A DNA stretch of 30,977 bases from an uncultured Atribacterota bacterium (GTDB lineage Bacteria; Atribacterota; Phoenicimicrobiia; Phoenicimicrobiales; Phoenicimicrobiaceae). The number at the start of each line of letters is the position of its first letter. Position 1 is the stretch's first letter. The position numbers and the translations under genes were made by a program. Where the stretch lies: NCBI GenBank assembly GCA_965602765.1, contig CBFCZX010000001.1, positions 1 to 30,977 of the forward strand. The letters are read 5' to 3'. This document shows, piece by piece, positions 13,708-29,033 of this stretch. Under the pieces are notes generated by a model that saw only the letters and a program-made list of their open reading frames with translations, searched no databases and had not been told where the DNA came from.

Positions 13708-14106
13708 TTTATCCCTCCTTCTTTTGTCTAGTATTTATCCAAAAAAACATAAAGTTTCTTTAAAATAAAATAACTAAAATGTTTTAAGAAGAAAAACTCC
13801 AACAATACTAGAGTAACTTAAAAATGAATTGATTTCAAGTATTTCATTATAAGCATACATCGGTGATTGAAACTTTGCATAATTTTAAAAAAATATTTCT
13901 ATTATCTTACAATGCATTTTCTATAAAATCAATAAAATGATAAATTGAATTAAATTCTAATAATTTTCTTGATAAAAAAAGGTATTTCCTAAAATATCCA
14001 TTAAATAAATATTGCGAGTAAATATTTAATTTTTTTATGGACAATAATATGCGGTTTATTGATACCTCTTTTTCTTGCTCAGATATATTTAAATGGTTGT
14101 GTTATG

Positions 14107-15108
14107 TTATTTCAGTATTTCAATGATGGCTCGAGTATATTTGATCGTGTCTGCTTTACCACCCAGATCAGGTGTTATTATTTTACCTTCCTTTAATACG
14201 CGCATCATCGCTTTTTCTATTCTATCCGCTGCATTTTTCTCTCCCAAATGTCTTAACATCATAACTCCGGAAAGGATAGTTGCGGTAGGATTCGCCGAAT
14301 GCGCTTTCAATCCTTTTGGTGCCGTACCATGAACCGGCTCAAATACTACCGTTTCATCTCCGACATTCATTCCGGGCACTACACCTAGCCCGCCTACCAG
14401 GCCGGCAGATAAATCGGATAGGATATCGCCATACAGGTTAGGCATAACCAATATTTCATAATCTTGGGGCATTTGAACCAGTTTCATGCTCATTGCATCG
14501 ACAATCATCTCTTCAAAAATAATCTCTGGATATTTTTGCGCGACTTCTTTCGCACACGCTAAAAAAAGACCATCGGTACATTTCATAATATTTGCTTTAT
14601 GCACCACTGTTACTTTTTTTCTTCTTTCATTCCTTGCTAAGTCAAATGCAAATTTTGAAATCCTTTTACTAGCTTTTCTGGTAATCACCTTGATGCTCTC
14701 CGCAGCATCCTCTCCAACCATATGCTCTATTCCGGAATATAGACCTTCAGTATTTTCCCTTACAATCACTAAATCAATATCAGAATATTTTGATGGTATA
14801 CCCGGATAATTTTTTATTGGTCTTACATTAGCATAAAGATCTAAAGATTTTCTTAGTGTAACATTTATACTCCTAAAACCTCCTCCTATGGGTGTTGTTA
14901 CCGGTCCTTTCAGAGCAACTTTATTCTTCCTGATATTATCTAATAAATGCTTTGGAAGCGGTGTGCCATATTTTTTAATTACTTTTTCGCCCGCCTCTAC
15001 TATCTCCCAGTTAATATTTACACCACTTGCTTCTAGAACCATTCTTGCTGCACTGGTAACTTCCGGACCTATTCCATCTCCCGGTATTAAGGTAATGGTA
15101 TACTTCAA
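14107..15108 (-). CDS. icd: Isocitrate dehydrogenase (short IDH/IPMDH-family type)
   Basis: LIPGDGIGPEV, SINVTLRKSLDLYANVRP, RENTEGLY, HKANIMK, PNLYGDILSD; TTG start; operonic with aconitase and citrate synthase. Confidence 0.8.
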   Translation of the reverse strand: MKYTITLIPGDGIGPEVTSAARMVLEASGVNINWEIVEAGEKVIKKYGTPLPKHLLDNIRKNKVALKGPVTTPIGGGFRSINVTLRKSLDLYANVRPIKNYPGIPSKYSDIDLVIVRENTEGLYSGIEHMVGEDAAESIKVITRKASKRISKFAFDLARNERRKKVTVVHKANIMKCTDGLFLACAKEVAQKYPEIIFEEMIVDAMSMKLVQMPQDYEILVMPNLYGDILSDLSAGLVGGLGVVPGMNVGDETVVFEPVHGTAPKGLKAHSANPTATILSGVMMLRHLGEKNAADRIEKAMMRVLKEGKIITPDLGGKADTIKYTRAIIEILK

Positions 15109-15138
15109 TTCAATTTTCCTCCCTTTATAATCGAGTAC

Positions 15139-17076
15139 CTATTCTTTTTTTTGAGATTTTATCAAGTTTAAAAAACCGCCAGCAATTGTCATTTCTTTTT
15201 GTCTTTGACTAAGATTCAAATACATTTTGCACTCTCTTTTTTTACTCTTATTTATTATGCAGATAATTCCACTTTTTTTTATCTGCTGCACTATATTTTC
15301 AATCAACAATTCATCCATCTCATCTATATGATCATATTCTGATGGATCTTCAAAGACCAAAGGCAATATTCCGTTGTTAATTAAATTAGTTTTATGTATC
15401 CTTGCAAATGATTTCGCCAAAACTGCTTTTACTCCAAGATAAAGAGGAACAAGTGCAGCATGTTCCCTGCTTGAACCCTGACCATAGTTTAAGCCTCCCA
15501 AAATAAAACCTCCTTTAAATTTTCTGGCTTTTTTTGGGAATTCTTTATCACATATTGTCAGGCAATAATCTGAAAGATAGGGAATATTTGACCTGTAAGG
15601 CAACAGTTTGGCAGAGGAAGGCATGATATGATCAGTGCTTATATTGTTTCCTACCTTAATTAAAACTTTTCCCTGTAAATGTAAGCCCATTGGTTTATTT
15701 ACTGGAAATGGTTTAATATTAGGACCTCTTATTATTTCGACTTTTTCATCATTATTTACCGGCGGAACTACCAGGTTATCATTAACCGTAAAACTTCCGG
15801 TTATTTTATCTTCTGGATAATTTTTTAATCCCAATTCTCTTGGATCTGTAATAAAACCGGTAAGAGCGGATGCAGCAGCTATTTCCGGACTGGCTAAATA
15901 AATGTCTGCTGAAATTGTCCCGGATCTTCCTTTGAAATTACGGTTAAAAGTTCTTAATGATATACCATTGGTAGACGGAGATTGCCCCATCCCAATACAA
16001 GGACCACAAGCACACTCAAGAATTCTAGCCCCAGACATAATCAAAGATGCCAAAGCACCATTTTGTGCAAGTAATGTTAAAACCTGCCTTGAACCCGGTG
16101 CTATTGCCAGAGAAACATGCTCTGCTATTGTTTTTCCTTTGAGAATTCCTGCGACTCTCATCAAATCACTATATGAAGAATTAGTACAACTGCCAATTAT
16201 AACCTGATTTACTTTAGTATTTTTTAAAGAGGATACACTAACCACATTATCCGGACTGTGTGGGCAAGCAACCAAGGGTTCAAGCTGAGAAAGGTTAATG
16301 GTCATTTCTTCATGATAATCAGCTCCTTGGTCCGCTTTTATTTTTCGATAATCCTGCCCCCTATTTTGATTTTTGAGAAAATTCAGGGTTACTTCATCAC
16401 TTGGAAATATTGAAGTAGTTGCACCTAATTCGGCTCCCATATTAGTAATGGTAGCTCTTTGAAATACAGATAGGTTCTTAACACCTTCACCGGTATATTC
16501 TAATATTTTACCTACTCCACCTTTTACGGTTAATCTCTTCAAAATCTCAAGTATAATATCTTTGGCCGATATCCAGGGATTCAATTCACCCTTCAAATCC
16601 ACTTTTATTATTTGTGGCATAATGAAATGATATTTTCCTTGAGCCATGGCTATGGCAACATCCAATCCTCCTGCCCCAATCGCCAACATTCCCAGACCTC
16701 CGGCTGTTGGCGTATGACTGTCGGAACCTAAAAGTGTTTTTCCGGGTATGCTAAATCTTTCTAAATGAACTTGATGGCATATACCATTCCCTGGTTTAGA
16801 ATAATATATGCCATATTTCTTGGCAATGGTCTGAATAAAGAGATGGTCATCAGCATTTTCAGGGCCTGATTGAATCATATTATGGTCAACATAAGCCAAT
16901 GATCTTTCTGTTTTTAATTTTTTTACGCCTAGTGCTTCAAGTTGAAGATAAACCATAGTGCCAGTTGAATCCTGTGTTAATGTTTGGTCAATTTTGATTG
17001 TTATTTCTTCCCCGGGAAACATCTTGCCTTCTAATAAATGGTTTTTTATTAATTTTTGGGCAACTGTCAATGGCAA
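15139..17076 (-). CDS. Aconitate hydratase (single-chain, ~645-aa type)
   Basis: GICHQVH, GSDSHT, IGSCTNSS, CGPCIGMG, STDHI, NYGQGSSREHA; TTG start with AGGAGG SD. Confidence 0.92.
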   Translation of the reverse strand: MPLTVAQKLIKNHLLEGKMFPGEEITIKIDQTLTQDSTGTMVYLQLEALGVKKLKTERSLAYVDHNMIQSGPENADDHLFIQTIAKKYGIYYSKPGNGICHQVHLERFSIPGKTLLGSDSHTPTAGGLGMLAIGAGGLDVAIAMAQGKYHFIMPQIIKVDLKGELNPWISAKDIILEILKRLTVKGGVGKILEYTGEGVKNLSVFQRATITNMGAELGATTSIFPSDEVTLNFLKNQNRGQDYRKIKADQGADYHEEMTINLSQLEPLVACPHSPDNVVSVSSLKNTKVNQVIIGSCTNSSYSDLMRVAGILKGKTIAEHVSLAIAPGSRQVLTLLAQNGALASLIMSGARILECACGPCIGMGQSPSTNGISLRTFNRNFKGRSGTISADIYLASPEIAAASALTGFITDPRELGLKNYPEDKITGSFTVNDNLVVPPVNNDEKVEIIRGPNIKPFPVNKPMGLHLQGKVLIKVGNNISTDHIMPSSAKLLPYRSNIPYLSDYCLTICDKEFPKKARKFKGGFILGGLNYGQGSSREHAALVPLYLGVKAVLAKSFARIHKTNLINNGILPLVFEDPSEYDHIDEMDELLIENIVQQIKKSGIICIINKSKKRECKMYLNLSQRQKEMTIAGGFLNLIKSQKKE

Positions 17077-17136
17077 TTTTCATTCCTCCTGTTTAGTTTT
17101 TTAGTGATGATTGAAAATATTTTAACATAGTTCTAA

Positions 17137-18531
17137 TTATTTGGTTGGTAAAATAGGAAATATTTCAGGAAAATATTTTCGAGCTAATAATTCTAGTTCT
17201 TCATCACTTATTACAGTTGCTCTTTTATTTTCATACTCTTCTTCAACCCATTTTTTTATTTCTAGTATTCTAACATCCTTTTTATTAATCTTTTTTTCAT
17301 CTTTTAAATTGAAAAAAGTATTTATCCAAGCAGCAATTCCAGCAATTCCGGAATGAGCACCTACGGCAATTACCACAGGTTTTTTTAAGATTTTATGTGT
17401 ATCAAATATATTATAGATTTCTTCATTTTTTAATATACCATCTGCGTGAATTCCTGCCCTCGTTGCATTAAATGCTTTTCCTACAAAAGGTGTTCTTGGA
17501 GGTATTTCGTAATGAATGACATTTTCAAAGTAATCGGCTATTTCAGTTATTATTTCAAGCTTCATATTTTTAATAGTGCCCCGCAGCTGTGCATATTCAA
17601 TTATCATTGCTTCTAAGGGACAATTTCCCGTTCTTTCACCTATACCTAAAAGAGAGGTATTCACTGCAGCAGCCCCATAAAACCAAGCTGTCGATGAATT
17701 GGATACTGCTTTATAAAAATCATTATGTCCATGCCATTCAATCCACTCCGATGGCACACCGGAATAATGTCGAAGCCCGTAAATAATCCCTTGAACACAT
17801 CTTGGCAATGCTGCACCCGGATAGGATACTCCCAATCCTAAAGTGTCACAAGCCCTAATTTTAATCGGAATTTTTGCTTTATTCGATAAATCCATTAATT
17901 TATTTGCAAAGGGGACTACAAAGCCATAAAAATCAGCTCGAGTAATATCTTCAAAATGGCATCTAGGAATAATTCCCTGCTCTAGAGCTGCTTCCACAAT
18001 AGAAATATACATATCCATCGCTTGCTTTCGTGAAAGATGAAGTTTTTTGAATATATGGTAATCAGAACAAGATACCAATATACCTGTTTCCTTTATTCCT
18101 ATTTGTTTAACCAGCTTAAAATCATCTTTTTTTGCCCTTATCCAGGTAGTCACTTCCGGATATTTATAATTTCTATTTAAGCATTTTTCTATTGCATCTC
18201 GATCTTTTTCAGAATAGATGAAAAATTCTGTCTGTCTTATTATGCCTGATTTATTATCTAATCGATGCAGGAAATCATAAATCGATAATATCTGTTCTGC
18301 CGTATATGGTGATCTGGATTGCTGCCCGTCTCTAAAAGTTGTATCAGTCACCCAGATTTCACTTGGGACAAATGAGGGCACATGTCTATGATTAAAAGTG
18401 ACTCGAGGTATTTCATCAAATGGAAATACTTCCCTAAACAGATTTGGTTTTGTTACATTTTGCAAGTTGTATTTATATATTGACTGTTCTAATAAATTAG
18501 AACGTTTACTAAATATTACATTTTTAGTCAT
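17137..18531 (-). CDS. Re-citrate synthase (IPMS/HCS DRE-TIM family)
   Basis: DTTFRDGQQ, HGHND, GERTGNCPLE; N-terminal extension like clostridial Re-CS; adjacent to acn and icd. Confidence 0.8.
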   Translation of the reverse strand: MTKNVIFSKRSNLLEQSIYKYNLQNVTKPNLFREVFPFDEIPRVTFNHRHVPSFVPSEIWVTDTTFRDGQQSRSPYTAEQILSIYDFLHRLDNKSGIIRQTEFFIYSEKDRDAIEKCLNRNYKYPEVTTWIRAKKDDFKLVKQIGIKETGILVSCSDYHIFKKLHLSRKQAMDMYISIVEAALEQGIIPRCHFEDITRADFYGFVVPFANKLMDLSNKAKIPIKIRACDTLGLGVSYPGAALPRCVQGIIYGLRHYSGVPSEWIEWHGHNDFYKAVSNSSTAWFYGAAAVNTSLLGIGERTGNCPLEAMIIEYAQLRGTIKNMKLEIITEIADYFENVIHYEIPPRTPFVGKAFNATRAGIHADGILKNEEIYNIFDTHKILKKPVVIAVGAHSGIAGIAAWINTFFNLKDEKKINKKDVRILEIKKWVEEEYENKRATVISDEELELLARKYFPEIFPILPTK

Positions 18532-18574
18532 AATTTTACCCTACCTTTAATATAATTAAAATAATCCTGATGGC

Positions 18575-19873
18575 TTAAGGCCAAATCCCTCTAATTTCCA
18601 TACTTTTTGCAACTTTTGAAATTGCATACATGTATGCTGCAGTACGGTTGTTCACTTTTTTATCCAGACTGATTTTTAAAACCTCGTTAAATGCTGTTAC
18701 CATTAATTCTTTTAGTCTTGAATTTACTTTTTCTTTGCTCCAGAAATAGCCGTAAAGCCCTTGAACCCATTCGAAATAAGATACCGTTACTCCTCCGGAA
18801 TTAGCTAAAATGTCAGGAATTATAAAAATGTTATTTTTAAAGAGAATATCATCTGCTTCCGGAGTAACCGGTCCATTGGCAGCTTCTGCGATTACTTTCG
18901 CTCTAATGCTACCAGCATTTTCCCTGGTTATTACTCCTTCCAAAGCAGCTGGAACAAGTATGTCACATTTCATTTTTAACAAATCATCATTTGAGATGGA
19001 CCTGGCTTTTGAATAATCACTTACGGTACCTGTCCTCATTTTATGTTCAAGTATTTCTACGGGATCAATTCCTTCCAAATTATAAACTCCTCCTTTTGAA
19101 TCACTAACACCAATGATCGTATACCCCTGTTCATGCAACAATCGGGCGGCTATAGAACCGGCATTGCCATAACCTTGAACAACTGCCGTAGCTTTTGATG
19201 GATTTAATTTCAAATATTTCGCAGCTTCTTTTACTATCATCGATAAACCGCGGGCAGTTGCTTCTTCTCTACCCTGTGATCCCCATAAATCAAGCGGTTT
19301 TCCGGTAATTGTGGCATAAGCAGATGAATGACAGATTTTATTATAAGTGTCAGTATACCAGCCCATAATTTTAGGATTTGTATATACGTCAGGGGCAGGG
19401 ATATCTTGTCTCGGGCCGATAATCGCTGATATCTCAAAAATATATCTTCTGGAAAGTCTTTCCAGTTCACCTTCAGACATTACTTTTGGATTACATTTAA
19501 TGCCTCCTTTTCCCCCTCCGAATGGAATTCCAACTATCGCACACTTCCAGGTCATCCAGGCAGACAGGGCTTTCACTTCGTCCAAGCTGACTTCGGGATG
19601 ATATCTCACTCCACCCTTTGCAGGGCCCCTGGCAGTATTAAATTGTGATCTGTAACCTTGAAATACTTTTACTTCTCCGTTATCCATTCTCACAGGAACC
19701 GAAACCATTAATACTCTTTCAGGTTCTTTAAGCTGGTTTAAAATATCAGGATTCAAATTCATTCTTTTTGCAGCAATTTCCAGTTGAATTTTTGCTATTT
19801 CAAAAACATTTGAAGATTTTTTCCTCTCCAATTTGACTAAACTCGCATTTCTTTCACTTATTTGATAAACCAT
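18575..19873 (-). CDS. gdhA: Glu/Leu/Phe/Val dehydrogenase, probably glutamate dehydrogenase
   Basis: GPAKGGVRYHP, GGGKGG, DIPAPDVYT, QGYGNAG, EAANGP, NSGGVTVSYFEW; start at ATG 19873 after an AAAGGA SD. Confidence 0.92.
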   Translation of the reverse strand: MVYQISERNASLVKLERKKSSNVFEIAKIQLEIAAKRMNLNPDILNQLKEPERVLMVSVPVRMDNGEVKVFQGYRSQFNTARGPAKGGVRYHPEVSLDEVKALSAWMTWKCAIVGIPFGGGKGGIKCNPKVMSEGELERLSRRYIFEISAIIGPRQDIPAPDVYTNPKIMGWYTDTYNKICHSSAYATITGKPLDLWGSQGREEATARGLSMIVKEAAKYLKLNPSKATAVVQGYGNAGSIAARLLHEQGYTIIGVSDSKGGVYNLEGIDPVEILEHKMRTGTVSDYSKARSISNDDLLKMKCDILVPAALEGVITRENAGSIRAKVIAEAANGPVTPEADDILFKNNIFIIPDILANSGGVTVSYFEWVQGLYGYFWSKEKVNSRLKELMVTAFNEVLKISLDKKVNNRTAAYMYAISKVAKSMEIRGIWP

Positions 19874-19980
19874 TTTATTTTTTCCTTTCAATATTTAATT
19901 CTAAATTTTTTCATAAATTAAAATAGAACTTAAAGTTTTTCCGGTAGTATAAACACCTCCACATAACGGCTCAGTTTTTT

Positions 19981-20033
19981 AAAATAAAAAGCCTTTTTTA
20001 AGACTGCCTTAGTCTTAAAAGGCTCCCTTGCCT
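19981..20033 (-). promoter_or_regulatory. ANTAR-type attenuator: hexaloop hairpin overlapping an intrinsic terminator
   Basis: AGGC-AAGGGA-GCCT (20033-20020), then AAGACT-AAGGC-AGTCTT; alternative terminator AGCCTTTTAAGACT/AGTCTTAAAAAAGGCT followed by TTTTATTTT. Confidence 0.7.
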
Positions 20034-20061
20034 AATTTTAATTTTTAACTGCAGTGTTGTT

Positions 20062-20081
20062 TTTCTACTCCGGTGTAGAAA
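20062..20081 (-). promoter_or_regulatory. Additional ANTAR-like hairpin (A1/G4 hexaloop)
   Basis: TTTCTAC-ACCGGA-GTAGAAA. Confidence 0.45.
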
Positions 20082-20087
20082 TATTGC

Positions 20088-20121
20088 GTGCTAAAAAATA
20101 CTACATAGTATTTTTTAGCAC
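20088..20121. repeat. Perfect 15-bp inverted repeat just after the ANTAR gene stop
   Basis: GTGCTAAAAAATACT / AGTATTTTTTAGCAC with a 4-nt loop. Confidence 0.85.
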
Positions 20122-20122
20122 T

Positions 20123-20824
20123 TTAATTATTTCTTACTTCATAAGAAAGGATAATTGCTTCAGCTACCTCCTTCATTGAAATTCTCTTATTCATACTATA
20201 TTTTCTCATCAAGGAAAAAGCTTTTTCTTCATTGACGCTTTTTTCCCTCATTAAAATACCTTTTGCTCTTTCAACTTTTTTTCGGGTTTCAAGCTCTTTT
20301 TGAATGATTTCAGTCTTAACGATTAATTCAGTTTTTTCAATTGCAACAGCAGCTTGATTTGCGACTGTACTTAAAAGGCTAATATCTGCTTTTGTATAAT
20401 TGTATAAAGTAGTCGTATAAACATTGAGGACGCCAATCACCTTACTGTTTACCATCATTGGAACACTTGCCATGGAAACTAAGCCTTCTTTTTCTGCAAG
20501 ATTCTTTTCCTTATAGCGGATATCTTTCAACACATCCAAAATAATGACAGGTTTTTTCTCACGCGCTACCAGGCCTACAATCCCCTCACTTATCTTTATT
20601 ACCCTTTTTACTAAATATTCTCTACTCATTGATTGTGTAGCCTCTATGGTAAATTCTTGATTTTTTTCGTTTAATAACCATATGTTACAAATTTTTGCAC
20701 ACATAACGTTTGCTGTTAAAGTAACGATCAATTTCAATATTTCTTCAAGATACATTTCTGATGTTATTGCTCTACTTATTTTATTTAAAGTTTTCAAGTA
20801 ATCTTCAAGATTGTACTTCTGCAT
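20123..20824 (-). CDS. One-component GAF-ANTAR RNA-binding antiterminator
   Basis: GAF (EGIVGLVA, SVPMM..VIGVLNVY, LSTVANQAAVAIE) plus ANTAR (LETRKKVERAKGILM...AFSLMRKYSMNKRISMKEVAEAII); ATG 20824 has better SD spacing than 20833. Confidence 0.93.
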   Translation of the reverse strand: MQKYNLEDYLKTLNKISRAITSEMYLEEILKLIVTLTANVMCAKICNIWLLNEKNQEFTIEATQSMSREYLVKRVIKISEGIVGLVAREKKPVIILDVLKDIRYKEKNLAEKEGLVSMASVPMMVNSKVIGVLNVYTTTLYNYTKADISLLSTVANQAAVAIEKTELIVKTEIIQKELETRKKVERAKGILMREKSVNEEKAFSLMRKYSMNKRISMKEVAEAIILSYEVRNN

Positions 20825-20911
20825 AATTTTCATACCCTTTTACGGACATTTATTTTATAGTATATTTATTATTACTTTACTAAATTAAAGTATTAAAGTA
20901 TAAAATTTTAT

Positions 20912-20971
20912 AAAAAAGCCTGAAAGATAGGTTATGTTCATTTTTACAGAACCTATCTTTCAGGCTTTTTT
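20912..20971 (-). terminator. Riboswitch expression-platform terminator
   Basis: Perfect 22-bp arms AAAAAAGCCTGAAAGATAGGTT (20971-20950) / AACCTATCTTTCAGGCTTTTTT (20933-20912). Confidence 0.9.
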
Positions 20972-21063
20972 CCCAAAAGTGTAACACTTATTTTTTAAAA
21001 ATGTCTGTACCGCTCGGTCCAGCTTCTTTTGGTTATGGAACGGAACCCTAGGCACACTCCTGT
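20946..21063 (-). ncRNA. ykkC-family riboswitch aptamer with P0 helix (ppGpp/PRPP-type architecture)
   Basis: ACAGGAGUGUGCCUAGGGUUCCG...GGACCGAGCGGUACA...ACACUUUUGGGAAAAAAGCCUGAAAGAUAGGUUCUGU; P0 ACAGGA/UUCUGU, P1 UGUGCC/GGUACA. Confidence 0.88.
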
Positions 21064-21089
21064 CTATTTAATATATTTTATTTTATGGG

Positions 21090-21118
21090 ATTATAGCAGG
21101 TCTTCTTGAAAAAGTCAA
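21090..21118 (-). promoter_or_regulatory. sigma70 promoter upstream of the riboswitch
   Basis: TTGACT (21118-21113), 17 nt, TATAAT (21095-21090). Confidence 0.8.
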
Positions 21119-21302
21119 GAAATTGAATAATTATTGTAATTGAACTTTGATATTTTCATCTTAAAAATAATTAGTAATAGTGTCACTACGGAAAAGTGAA
21201 GATGTCTAGTGACTAAATAAAGAATTAGTATGAGTTTGTGTTATCAACTCCCCAATTGAGAATAAGATGACCAGTGGCAGAGATTTAAAAAATTATTTTA
21301 AC

Positions 21303-22250
21303 TCATATGCTATATTCCATAAAATCTTCAGCTAATAAAGTTTGTGGGAAAATTTTTCGAGCTTCAACCAATAAATCCTTTTCGGTCGTTTTGTTATTTT
21401 TACTTTTAGAATTATATCTTGAACTAATATGAGTTAATATGAGCCGTTTTACACCTGCCTCTTTTGCAGCGTTTGCAGCTACCGCAGTTGTTGAATGGAA
21501 ATTACGAAAGGCATCTTCCTTTTCTTTGTAAGAAAAAGTTGATTCATGTATTAAGATATCTGCATTCTTCGCCAAGAAAATTAGATTTTCGGAAAAAGCC
21601 GTATCACTTCCAAACACTATTTTTTTTCTTTCTTTAATACAATCAATAAAATCTTTTCCATGAAAGATTCTACCATCAGGTAATTTGATTGTTTTCCCTT
21701 CTTTCAAAGCTTTATATACCGGACCTGGTTTTATATTGTATTCTCGGGCTTTTTCTATCATAAAATGACTTTGCTTTTTTTTCTCTTCTAAAGAATATCC
21801 ATATGTTTTTAGGTTGTGAGTAAGTTCGCAATATTTCACTCTAAATTCTTCATCTTCGTATATGATTCCTGAGGTAGAACTTGAAGGGATAATATTCACC
21901 TTAATTTCATAAGGAATATAAGTTTTAGACAATTTCAACGTTTCTTTTAAATATAAATCAAGACCTTCGGGACCAAATATTTGAATGTTATGCTGATTTT
22001 TTCCGCAAGTCAAACCTCGAGATGCTAATAATCCGGGAAGTCCGAACAAATGGTCGCCGTGCAAATGAGATATAAATACTTTTTCTAACCTTGATATTTT
22101 CAAAGAAGTTTTTAAAATCTGATGTTGCGTTCCTTCTCCGCAATCCCACAACCACCATTTATTTTTTTTAGAAAAAATCAGTGCTATAGAAGATACGTTT
22201 CTCCTCAAAGAAGGTAAACCAGAACCGGTACCTAAAAAAAATAATTTCAT
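21303..22250 (-). CDS. rnz: Ribonuclease Z
   Basis: FLGTGSG.P, WDCGEGTQ, SHLHGDH, HEST, THISSRY; start at ATG 22250. Confidence 0.95.
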   Translation of the reverse strand: MKLFFLGTGSGLPSLRRNVSSIALIFSKKNKWWLWDCGEGTQHQILKTSLKISRLEKVFISHLHGDHLFGLPGLLASRGLTCGKNQHNIQIFGPEGLDLYLKETLKLSKTYIPYEIKVNIIPSSSTSGIIYEDEEFRVKYCELTHNLKTYGYSLEEKKKQSHFMIEKAREYNIKPGPVYKALKEGKTIKLPDGRIFHGKDFIDCIKERKKIVFGSDTAFSENLIFLAKNADILIHESTFSYKEKEDAFRNFHSTTAVAANAAKEAGVKRLILTHISSRYNSKSKNNKTTEKDLLVEARKIFPQTLLAEDFMEYSI

Positions 22251-28875: not shown

Positions 28876-28895
28876 ATAATTGTAAAATACTAACT

Positions 28896-28996
28896 ATGCT
28901 CTCCTTTCCAAACACGGGAGGGACAAAAGTTTCCTTTCGCTCCCCTTCGGCTAAATCACCATTGTTTTCCTTTAGGTAAAATAGCTCGGAGAATAT
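28896..28996 (-). ncRNA. Moco RNA motif, P3-less (Tuco-type) variant
   Basis: CUCCGAGC...ACCUAA...AUGGU...UAGCCGAAGGG...GAAAGGAAAC...CCUCCCGUGUUUGGAAAGGAG upstream of the cofactor operon. Confidence 0.88.
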
Positions 28997-29033
28997 GGGA
29001 ATGATTAATATAATTTCAAATTATCTTTTTAGT

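Follow-up and report, generated by a model that had tools for sequence, protein, structure and literature searches.

A ykkC subtype 2a riboswitch, very probably for (p)ppGpp, heads a GAF-ANTAR regulator and glutamate-synthesis operon in an apparent Atribacterota genome

The ykkC-fold RNA on the minus strand at positions 20946-21063 of the window (the whole 30,977-nucleotide stretch of DNA analysed) is very probably an ordinary ykkC subtype 2a ON switch for (p)ppGpp, with ppGpp as the most likely ligand and pppGpp probably bound as well. A first-pass annotation of this DNA had already named ppGpp and subtype 2a as its best guess, and this assignment is supported by every diagnostic position that could be checked and by the gene context. 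The same annotation took an atypical P3 helix as a hint of a new ligand class, a suggestion that is not supported: the one-base-shorter P3 is a common subtype 2a form and gives no sign of a new ligand. What is new is the link of such a switch to a GAF-ANTAR regulator and to an operon containing glutamate dehydrogenase (gdh) and the branch from citrate to 2-oxoglutarate, together with its occurrence in apparent Atribacterota.

The aptamer is preceded by a sigma-70-type promoter (21090..21118, minus strand), which is composed of a -35 hexamer (TTGACT), a 17-nt spacer and a TG-extended -10 hexamer (TATAAT). These hexamers are near-consensus, matching at 11 of 12 positions, and the site ranks first within 13800-21400; transcription from it would start approximately 20 nt ahead of the aptamer. 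At the Rfam gathering thresholds, no match was returned at the aptamer site. In a permissive Rfam scan, the guanidine-I family (RF00442) matched 21062-20955 along the full length of its model with 51.6 bits (E 3e-8; gathering score 63), while no other meaningful match was obtained at this site, and neither ppGpp nor PRPP appeared as a family of its own.

The minimum-energy fold of 21064-20945 alone is a four-way junction that reproduces the ykkC helices P0, P1, P2 and P3, all encoded on the minus strand. P0 consists of six base pairs (21063-21058 with 20951-20946), identified by the fold and by covariation; its 5' strand (21058..21063) contributes A21058, which together with the adjoining unpaired G21057 corresponds to A5/G6 in the numbering of the Thermoanaerobacter mathranii aptamer, and its 3' strand (20946..20951) is likewise supported by covariation. 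The P1/P1a/P1b stem-loop (21006..21056) carries the P1 pairs 21056-21051 with 21011-21006, and its G21013/C21012 correspond to G48/C49. It is followed by the P2 hairpin (20983..21005), recognized in both the Rfam alignment and the fold, and by the ACAC junction (20979..20982), in which C20981 corresponds to C75 and C20979 to C77, the latter also closing P3. According to fold and covariation, P3 (20957..20979) comprises eight uninterrupted base pairs, two of them G-U (20979-20972 with 20964-20957), and a 7-nt loop, with no nucleotide at the G96 position. The single-stranded linker between P3 and P0 (AUAGG, 20952..20956) is identical to A101-G105 of T. mathranii and fits the (A)NARG consensus. 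P0, P1 and P3 of the window copy are perfectly paired in the minimum-energy fold.

The T. mathranii PRPP aptamer sequence, as given in the first-pass annotation, served as a residue ruler. It agrees with the residue numbering of PMC6031431 (C75, A76, C77, C78, G95-G97, A101, A103, G104 and G105), which makes it usable for this purpose, and the window RNA was aligned to the experimentally studied aptamers through published residue numbers. Residues A5/G6 (21058/21057), G48/C49 (21013/21012), C75-A76-C77 (20981-20979) and A101-G105 (20956-20952) are kept on this ruler, and all published ligand-contact residues are retained. In the solved structures, A5/G6 make contact with the ligand's 5' phosphates (PMC6031431, PMC9881157), the equivalent of C75 base-pairs with the guanine of ppGpp (PMC6031431), and the ppGpp binders share the (A)NARG linker consensus (PMC9881157). 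Replacing that C by U in a native ppGpp aptamer has been shown to turn its preference to adenine nucleotides (cited in PMC6031431). The ACAC junction is invariant in 61 of 61 aligned aptamers, as are the A-U pair of P0 and the unpaired G that follows it (A7 and G8 of the alignment). P1 of the window RNA ends in an ACA motif of the '0/1' type (types as defined in PMC9881157), a feature that would lean towards ppGpp over pppGpp by the correlations reported there, and as a correlation only.

The guanidine-I riboswitch shares the P1, P2 and P3 core with the window RNA, and its model is the sole Rfam family matched, with sister aptamers passing the cut-off at 63-65 bits. The identity of the RNA as a guanidine sensor is nevertheless of practically negligible probability, in keeping with the first-pass annotation, which had argued against it on account of P0. 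Guanidine-I RNAs lack P0 and conserve an A at the marker position, which is occupied by a pyrimidine in subtypes 2a and 2b (C49 of T. mathranii; PMC6031431), whereas the window RNA possesses P0 and has C at this position (21012; GAGCG against the GAGAG consensus of the RF00442 alignment). The S-turn G that guanidine-I keeps is absent here, the score lies below the threshold, and neither guanidine carboxylase nor efflux genes are found nearby, in contrast to the guanidine detoxification genes associated with that class. Elsewhere, an aptamer on contig 38 of the same genome (L001:1501-1605) and those of L005-L008 are subtype 2a aptamers that score 63.1-65.4 bits against the guanidine-I gathering score of 63, despite their subtype 2 pyrimidine and P0.

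The PRPP riboswitch (subtype 2b), represented by the T. mathranii aptamer (PMC6031431), has its scaffold, P0, ACAC junction and AUAGG linker in common with the window RNA, but differs from it in nucleotide 96 and in gene context. More than 97% of PRPP aptamers have G96, which is needed for PRPP selectivity and pairs with C75, while ppGpp (2a) aptamers do not always have nucleotide 96 and, when it is present, carry A, C or U instead of G (PMC6031431). The 3' side of lower P3 has five nucleotides in the window RNA and six in T. mathranii, and the two P3 strands of the window RNA, 8 nt against 8 nt, leave no base unpaired and no G96. The first-pass annotation had assigned A to the G96-equivalent position, which is true only of the Rfam alignment, where it forces a C-A mismatch; in the simplest reading of the sequence, nucleotide 96 would be missing altogether, with the strands pairing base for base. 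Moreover, neither a purine gene nor a partner guanine aptamer lies nearby, and the genome has a PRPP-type aptamer of its own, located after a guanine aptamer and before purE. A PRPP ligand for the window RNA is accordingly almost inconceivable.

The observation that the P3 segment is 1 nt shorter and can form a near-continuous helix is itself correct, as the fold gives an uninterrupted 8-bp P3 and compensatory changes support it. The distance from the first C of ACAC to the linker A is 28 nt in the PRPP aptamer (C75-A103), 27 nt in the window RNA and 26 nt in the Thermosediminibacter oceani ppGpp aptamer (C-70 to A-96), so this part is shorter in the T. oceani aptamer, too, than in the PRPP aptamer. 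By residue numbering, the segment after ACAC measures 22 nt both in the window RNA and in the crystallised natural ppGpp aptamer. Residue arithmetic of this kind suggests that a shorter P3 segment is the norm for ppGpp aptamers.

Covariation was assessed in an alignment of 61 aptamers by counting pairs in P0, P1, the inner P1 helices and P3. Paired states account for 96.9% of the cells, and in 13 pairs both partners vary; none of 500 shuffles is as good, and no slid register comes close. Covarying pairs make up four of six in P0, whose presence had been reported in the first-pass annotation, and five of six in P1. In P3, where 94.5% of the cells are paired, pairs 108/128, 109/127 and 112/124 covary, corresponding to three of the five free positions; this result is not circular because the search pattern left those positions free. 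The exception is the third P3 pair, at which the high-GC aptamers located before gltB or ilvB (L064-L126) conserve a purine-purine mismatch, G-G or sometimes A-G; in the Atribacterota copies, U-A or U-G is found there.

Three home-built covariance models, distinct from the published 2a-2d alignments, were prepared from sequences sorted by gene context alone: R1 from 24 bulge-less aptamers of high-GC lineages that precede gltB or ilvB, R2 from 14 A96-type aptamers before ilvB or ilvD, and R3 from five aptamers before purE or purC. On these context-sorted models, which cover only 2a and PRPP, the window RNA scores 77.6 bits with R1 (E 1e-14, 21064-20945), 67.1 bits with R2 and 34.6 bits with R3, whereas true PRPP members score 134-188 bits on R3 and 43-57 bits on R1. 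The R1 and RF00442 scores together confirm the annotated ykkC fold on the minus strand, and the best score falling to a canonical-context model is at odds with P3 as a sign of novelty. By model score, the window RNA groups with the canonical-context ppGpp aptamers of other phyla despite a gap of 25-30 points in G+C content.

The window copy scores lower on RF00442 than its orthologues (51.6 versus 60-65 bits) and has the weakest P1b among them; the points are lost in P1b, away from the pocket, where there are two mismatches and one base is deleted. This weakness could be taken to indicate a decayed aptamer without sensing function, in which case the downstream terminator would act constitutively or be governed by the ANTAR protein alone. 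Such decay is very unlikely, given that the pocket residues are all intact, the perfect pairing of P0, P1 and P3 is preserved, and the element, with compensatory changes, is kept at all 13 orthologous loci.

The genome containing the window (1.63 Mb in 213 contigs) has three further ykkC-type aptamers. One, with a near-identical 8-on-8 P3, lies upstream of the gene for a branched-chain amino acid carrier of the BrnQ type. On contig 59 (L002:1501-1886), a T-box leader (124 bits) is followed by an A96-type 2a aptamer and the acetolactate synthase gene ilvB, an arrangement that equals the published T-box/ppGpp tandem. On contig 42 (L004:965-1191), a guanine aptamer (68 bits) is followed by a G96 PRPP-type aptamer and purE, as in the textbook PRPP tandem; this PRPP-type aptamer has a long P1 insertion and reaches only 27.6 bits on the Rfam guanidine-I model. 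Applied to 100 related genomes, the model hit 44, all within two families of one order, and the hits sort into the same three sequence types (bulge-less, A96 and G96) with the same gene logic as in the window's own genome. The same-genus genomes G001 and G002 (93% and 90% complete) yielded A96- and PRPP-type aptamers only, with neither a GAF-ANTAR orthologue nor a bulge-less aptamer found in them; the nearest GAF-ANTAR orthologues occur in genera other than that of the window, which indicates a patchy distribution or assembly gaps.

A search pattern that fixed nothing but the invariant bases and P3's 8/7/8 geometry was run over one genome per prokaryote species and gave 67 loci, mostly in metagenome-assembled genomes (MAGs) of Atribacterota, to which the window apparently belongs, with a second group in high-GC Armatimonadota, Bacillota and related MAGs. 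Two of the aptamers, labelled as from a Promethearchaeota archaeon (L125) and from Fusobacteriaceae (L117), are of the Atribacterota type with near-identical downstream genes, and their contigs are probably mis-binned. Pooling of the pattern loci with those of the relatives resulted in 63 distinct bulge-less aptamers. The first downstream gene encodes a GAF-ANTAR protein in 14 of the 63, a LivJ-type binding protein in nine and gdh in four; in unrelated high-GC lineages it is the glutamate synthase large subunit gene (gltB) in 12 cases and ilvB in another 12. BrnQ, SNF, DctP, a class III aminotransferase, an M19 peptidase, an M20 peptidase and IlvE are represented once each, and in the remaining five the gene was not identified or the contig was too short. 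The gltB and ilvB genes are signature contexts of the ppGpp riboswitch class (PMC6003355). Sister aptamers thus preceding gltB, ilvB, ilvE, gdh and LivJ/BrnQ carriers, along with a window operon that makes glutamate, fit the 2a association with branched-chain amino acid, glutamate and natA-type transporter genes. Subtype 2c, which senses nucleoside diphosphates, and the orphan subtype 2d are built on the same scaffold, and they have been described next to genes for NUDIX/HAD hydrolases (2c) and EamA/TauE transporters (2d) (PMC7266159); genes of these kinds are absent here and from all 63 related loci, so that membership in either subtype is, by gene context, very unlikely.

Within the window's lineage, the A96 and bulge-less forms govern gene sets without overlap: the A96 form is found before ilvB and ilvD, and the bulge-less form before genes for GAF-ANTAR, gdh, LivJ-type, BrnQ, SNF, DctP, aminotransferase and peptidase proteins, the two never preceding the same gene class. 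This separation could hide a difference in selectivity. It has accordingly to be considered whether the bulge-less aptamers, at least in this lineage, constitute a distinct variant class that binds another ligand or discriminates sharply among the alarmones ppGpp, pppGpp and pGpp, so that branched-chain amino acid synthesis on the one hand and glutamate synthesis with amino-acid uptake on the other could be run as two programmes. In its favour, published 2a aptamers prefer either ppGpp or pppGpp and some bind neither (PMC9881157), and single substitutions switch the ligand of the ykkC scaffold (PMC6031431). However, the known contact nucleotides are all unchanged between the two forms, the bulge-less form also governs ilvB and gltB in other phyla, where it additionally occurs before ilvE, the lack of nucleotide 96 belongs to the published description of 2a (PMC6031431), and the equal length, by residue numbering, of the P3 segment in the crystallised aptamer points in the same direction. 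A distinct class is consequently considered unlikely, and an ordinary (p)ppGpp switch is retained as the preferred interpretation.

An intrinsic terminator on the minus strand (20902..20971) overlaps the 3' end of the aptamer and consists of a 22-nt 5' arm (20971-20950), a 3' arm (20933-20912) and a subsequent U-rich tract. Its 5' arm is perfectly complementary to the 3' arm and takes in P3 from its loop through its 3' strand, then the linker and the opening bases of the P0 3' strand. The minimum-energy fold of the full leader is the terminator (-58.1 kcal/mol, compared with -30.6 kcal/mol when P0 and P3 are enforced; z = -6.6). Because the 5' arm of the terminator overlaps the 3' strands of P3 and P0, ligand-stabilised P3/P0 would act as an antiterminator, which is the layout of an ON switch. 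ON logic has been shown experimentally for the Desulfitobacterium hafniense ppGpp riboswitch (PMC6003355).

The first gene behind this terminator (20123..20833, minus strand) encodes a putative RNA-binding antiterminator protein with a GAF domain (GAF_2, 1.5e-21) and an ANTAR domain (1.8e-19). The rest of the operon (14107..19891, minus strand) encodes glutamate dehydrogenase, an HMGL-like synthase, aconitase and isocitrate dehydrogenase. Judging from the neighbouring genes, the HMGL-like synthase is probably Re-citrate synthase, and the predicted functions of the operon would together convert acetyl-CoA and oxaloacetate all the way to glutamate. The remark in the first-pass annotation that the downstream gene is unusual proved well founded, as this gene is real, conserved and placed at the head of a glutamate-synthesis operon. 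Thirteen orthologues of the GAF-ANTAR protein, sharing 69-77% identity and distributed over at least seven genera, were found; all 13 have the aptamer approximately 110 nt upstream, and in 11 of the 13 loci gdh follows the regulator. In a sister family, the aptamer lies directly before gdh, without the regulator. In one locus (L047, contig 42 of G003), the GAF-ANTAR gene and hairpin/terminator region are apparently followed directly by the HMGL-like synthase and not by gdh, as far as its N-terminal residues indicate.

Between the regulator gene and gdh lies a candidate ANTAR target with a second terminator (19981..20080, minus strand). It contains two hexaloop hairpins (20080-20063 and 20033-20020), both with A as the first and G as the fourth loop nucleotide, and the second of them shares its 3' arm with a strong terminator (20023-19991) followed by a U tract. 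Criteria for ANTAR target hairpins have been set out in PMC3369931, together with a spacing of 5-12 nt in eut leaders; the hairpins at 19981-20080 would fit these rules except for their 29-nt spacer. Related hairpin/terminator sites are present in 10 orthologous loci. Orthologous loci have three ANTAR-type hairpins with spacers of 5 nt and approximately 15 nt, and the window has two hairpins. A perfect 15-bp hairpin is additionally located right after the GAF-ANTAR stop codon (20088-20121); the orthologous loci lack it, and only a plus-strand reading makes it terminator-like. In another part of the window, a Moco/tungsten-cofactor riboswitch aptamer (28885-29003, minus strand; 75 bits) that lacks the P3 hairpin of the model is found upstream of molybdopterin genes.

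Taken together, these elements suggest a two-step gate, proposed here from sequence features. In the absence of ligand, the nascent leader would fold into the 22-bp terminator and transcription would halt ahead of the first gene. Amino-acid starvation would raise (p)ppGpp, which would occupy the pocket formed by P0 and P3; by homology to the solved structures, its guanine would pair with C20981, and its phosphates would be held by A21058/G21057, G21013/C21012, C20979 and the AUAGG linker. Binding would lock P3 and P0 and thereby sequester the 5' arm of the terminator, allowing the polymerase to read through. The resulting transcript would first encode the GAF-ANTAR antiterminator, then reach the second terminator with its ANTAR-type hairpins, and only then continue into gdh and the genes beyond it. 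The alarmone would thus admit the polymerase, after which the GAF-ANTAR protein would have to act at the second terminator, so that starvation may license glutamate synthesis while a second input is supplied through the GAF domain.

In comparison with the described ppGpp riboswitches (PMC6003355, and the natural T. oceani ilvE structure as cited in PMC9881157), the window shares the P0 junction, the marker pyrimidine, the ACAC motif, the (A)NARG-type linker and the lack of G96. It is also alike in its P3 antiterminator ON logic, in its association with amino-acid supply genes, including those for glutamate synthesis, and in the T-box/2a tandem found in the same genome. Glutamate biosynthesis has been linked to ppGpp riboswitches before (PMC6003355, PMC7266159), but the published link is to glutamate synthase (gltB/gltD/glxB) and not to glutamate dehydrogenase or an ANTAR regulator. 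The window differs accordingly in having GAF-ANTAR as its first gene and glutamate dehydrogenase with the citrate-to-2-oxoglutarate branch in place of glutamate synthase. Whereas the class has been described mainly in Firmicutes, the host here is an apparent Atribacterota MAG. With the ANTAR systems EutV, NasR and AmiR (PMC3369931), the window has in common the ANTAR domain and the A1/G4 hexaloop hairpins, one of which shares a strand with a terminator; in contrast to them, its sensor is a GAF domain, its hairpins lie farther apart than the 5-12 nt of the eut leaders, and the regulator itself is under a riboswitch. A paper on ANTAR and gdhA in Geobacter was considered as a precedent and rejected, as gdhA is controlled there through an enhancer-binding protein. 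Within the limited literature collection that was searched, no paper pairing a ppGpp riboswitch with ANTAR or Atribacter was found.

The fully paired, one-base-shorter P3 can be regarded as one normal form of the ppGpp riboswitch, which removes a false lead. The Rfam guanidine-I model detects such aptamers at or just above its threshold, with the consequence that automated annotation would mislabel some of them. If the bulge-less form did possess a distinct selectivity, two chemically distinct starvation programmes would run on one scaffold, and the window copy, by adding a protein antiterminator, would form a two-input gate for glutamate synthesis. Beyond the cultured Firmicutes, the class occurs abundantly among apparent Atribacterota and among high-GC Armatimonadota and Bacillota MAGs. 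The regulon in these lineages takes in several systems for amino-acid uptake as well as glutamate dehydrogenase together with the citrate-to-2-oxoglutarate branch, and in one family an RNA sensor would drive a protein regulator that itself binds RNA, the GAF-ANTAR antiterminator, within the same operon.
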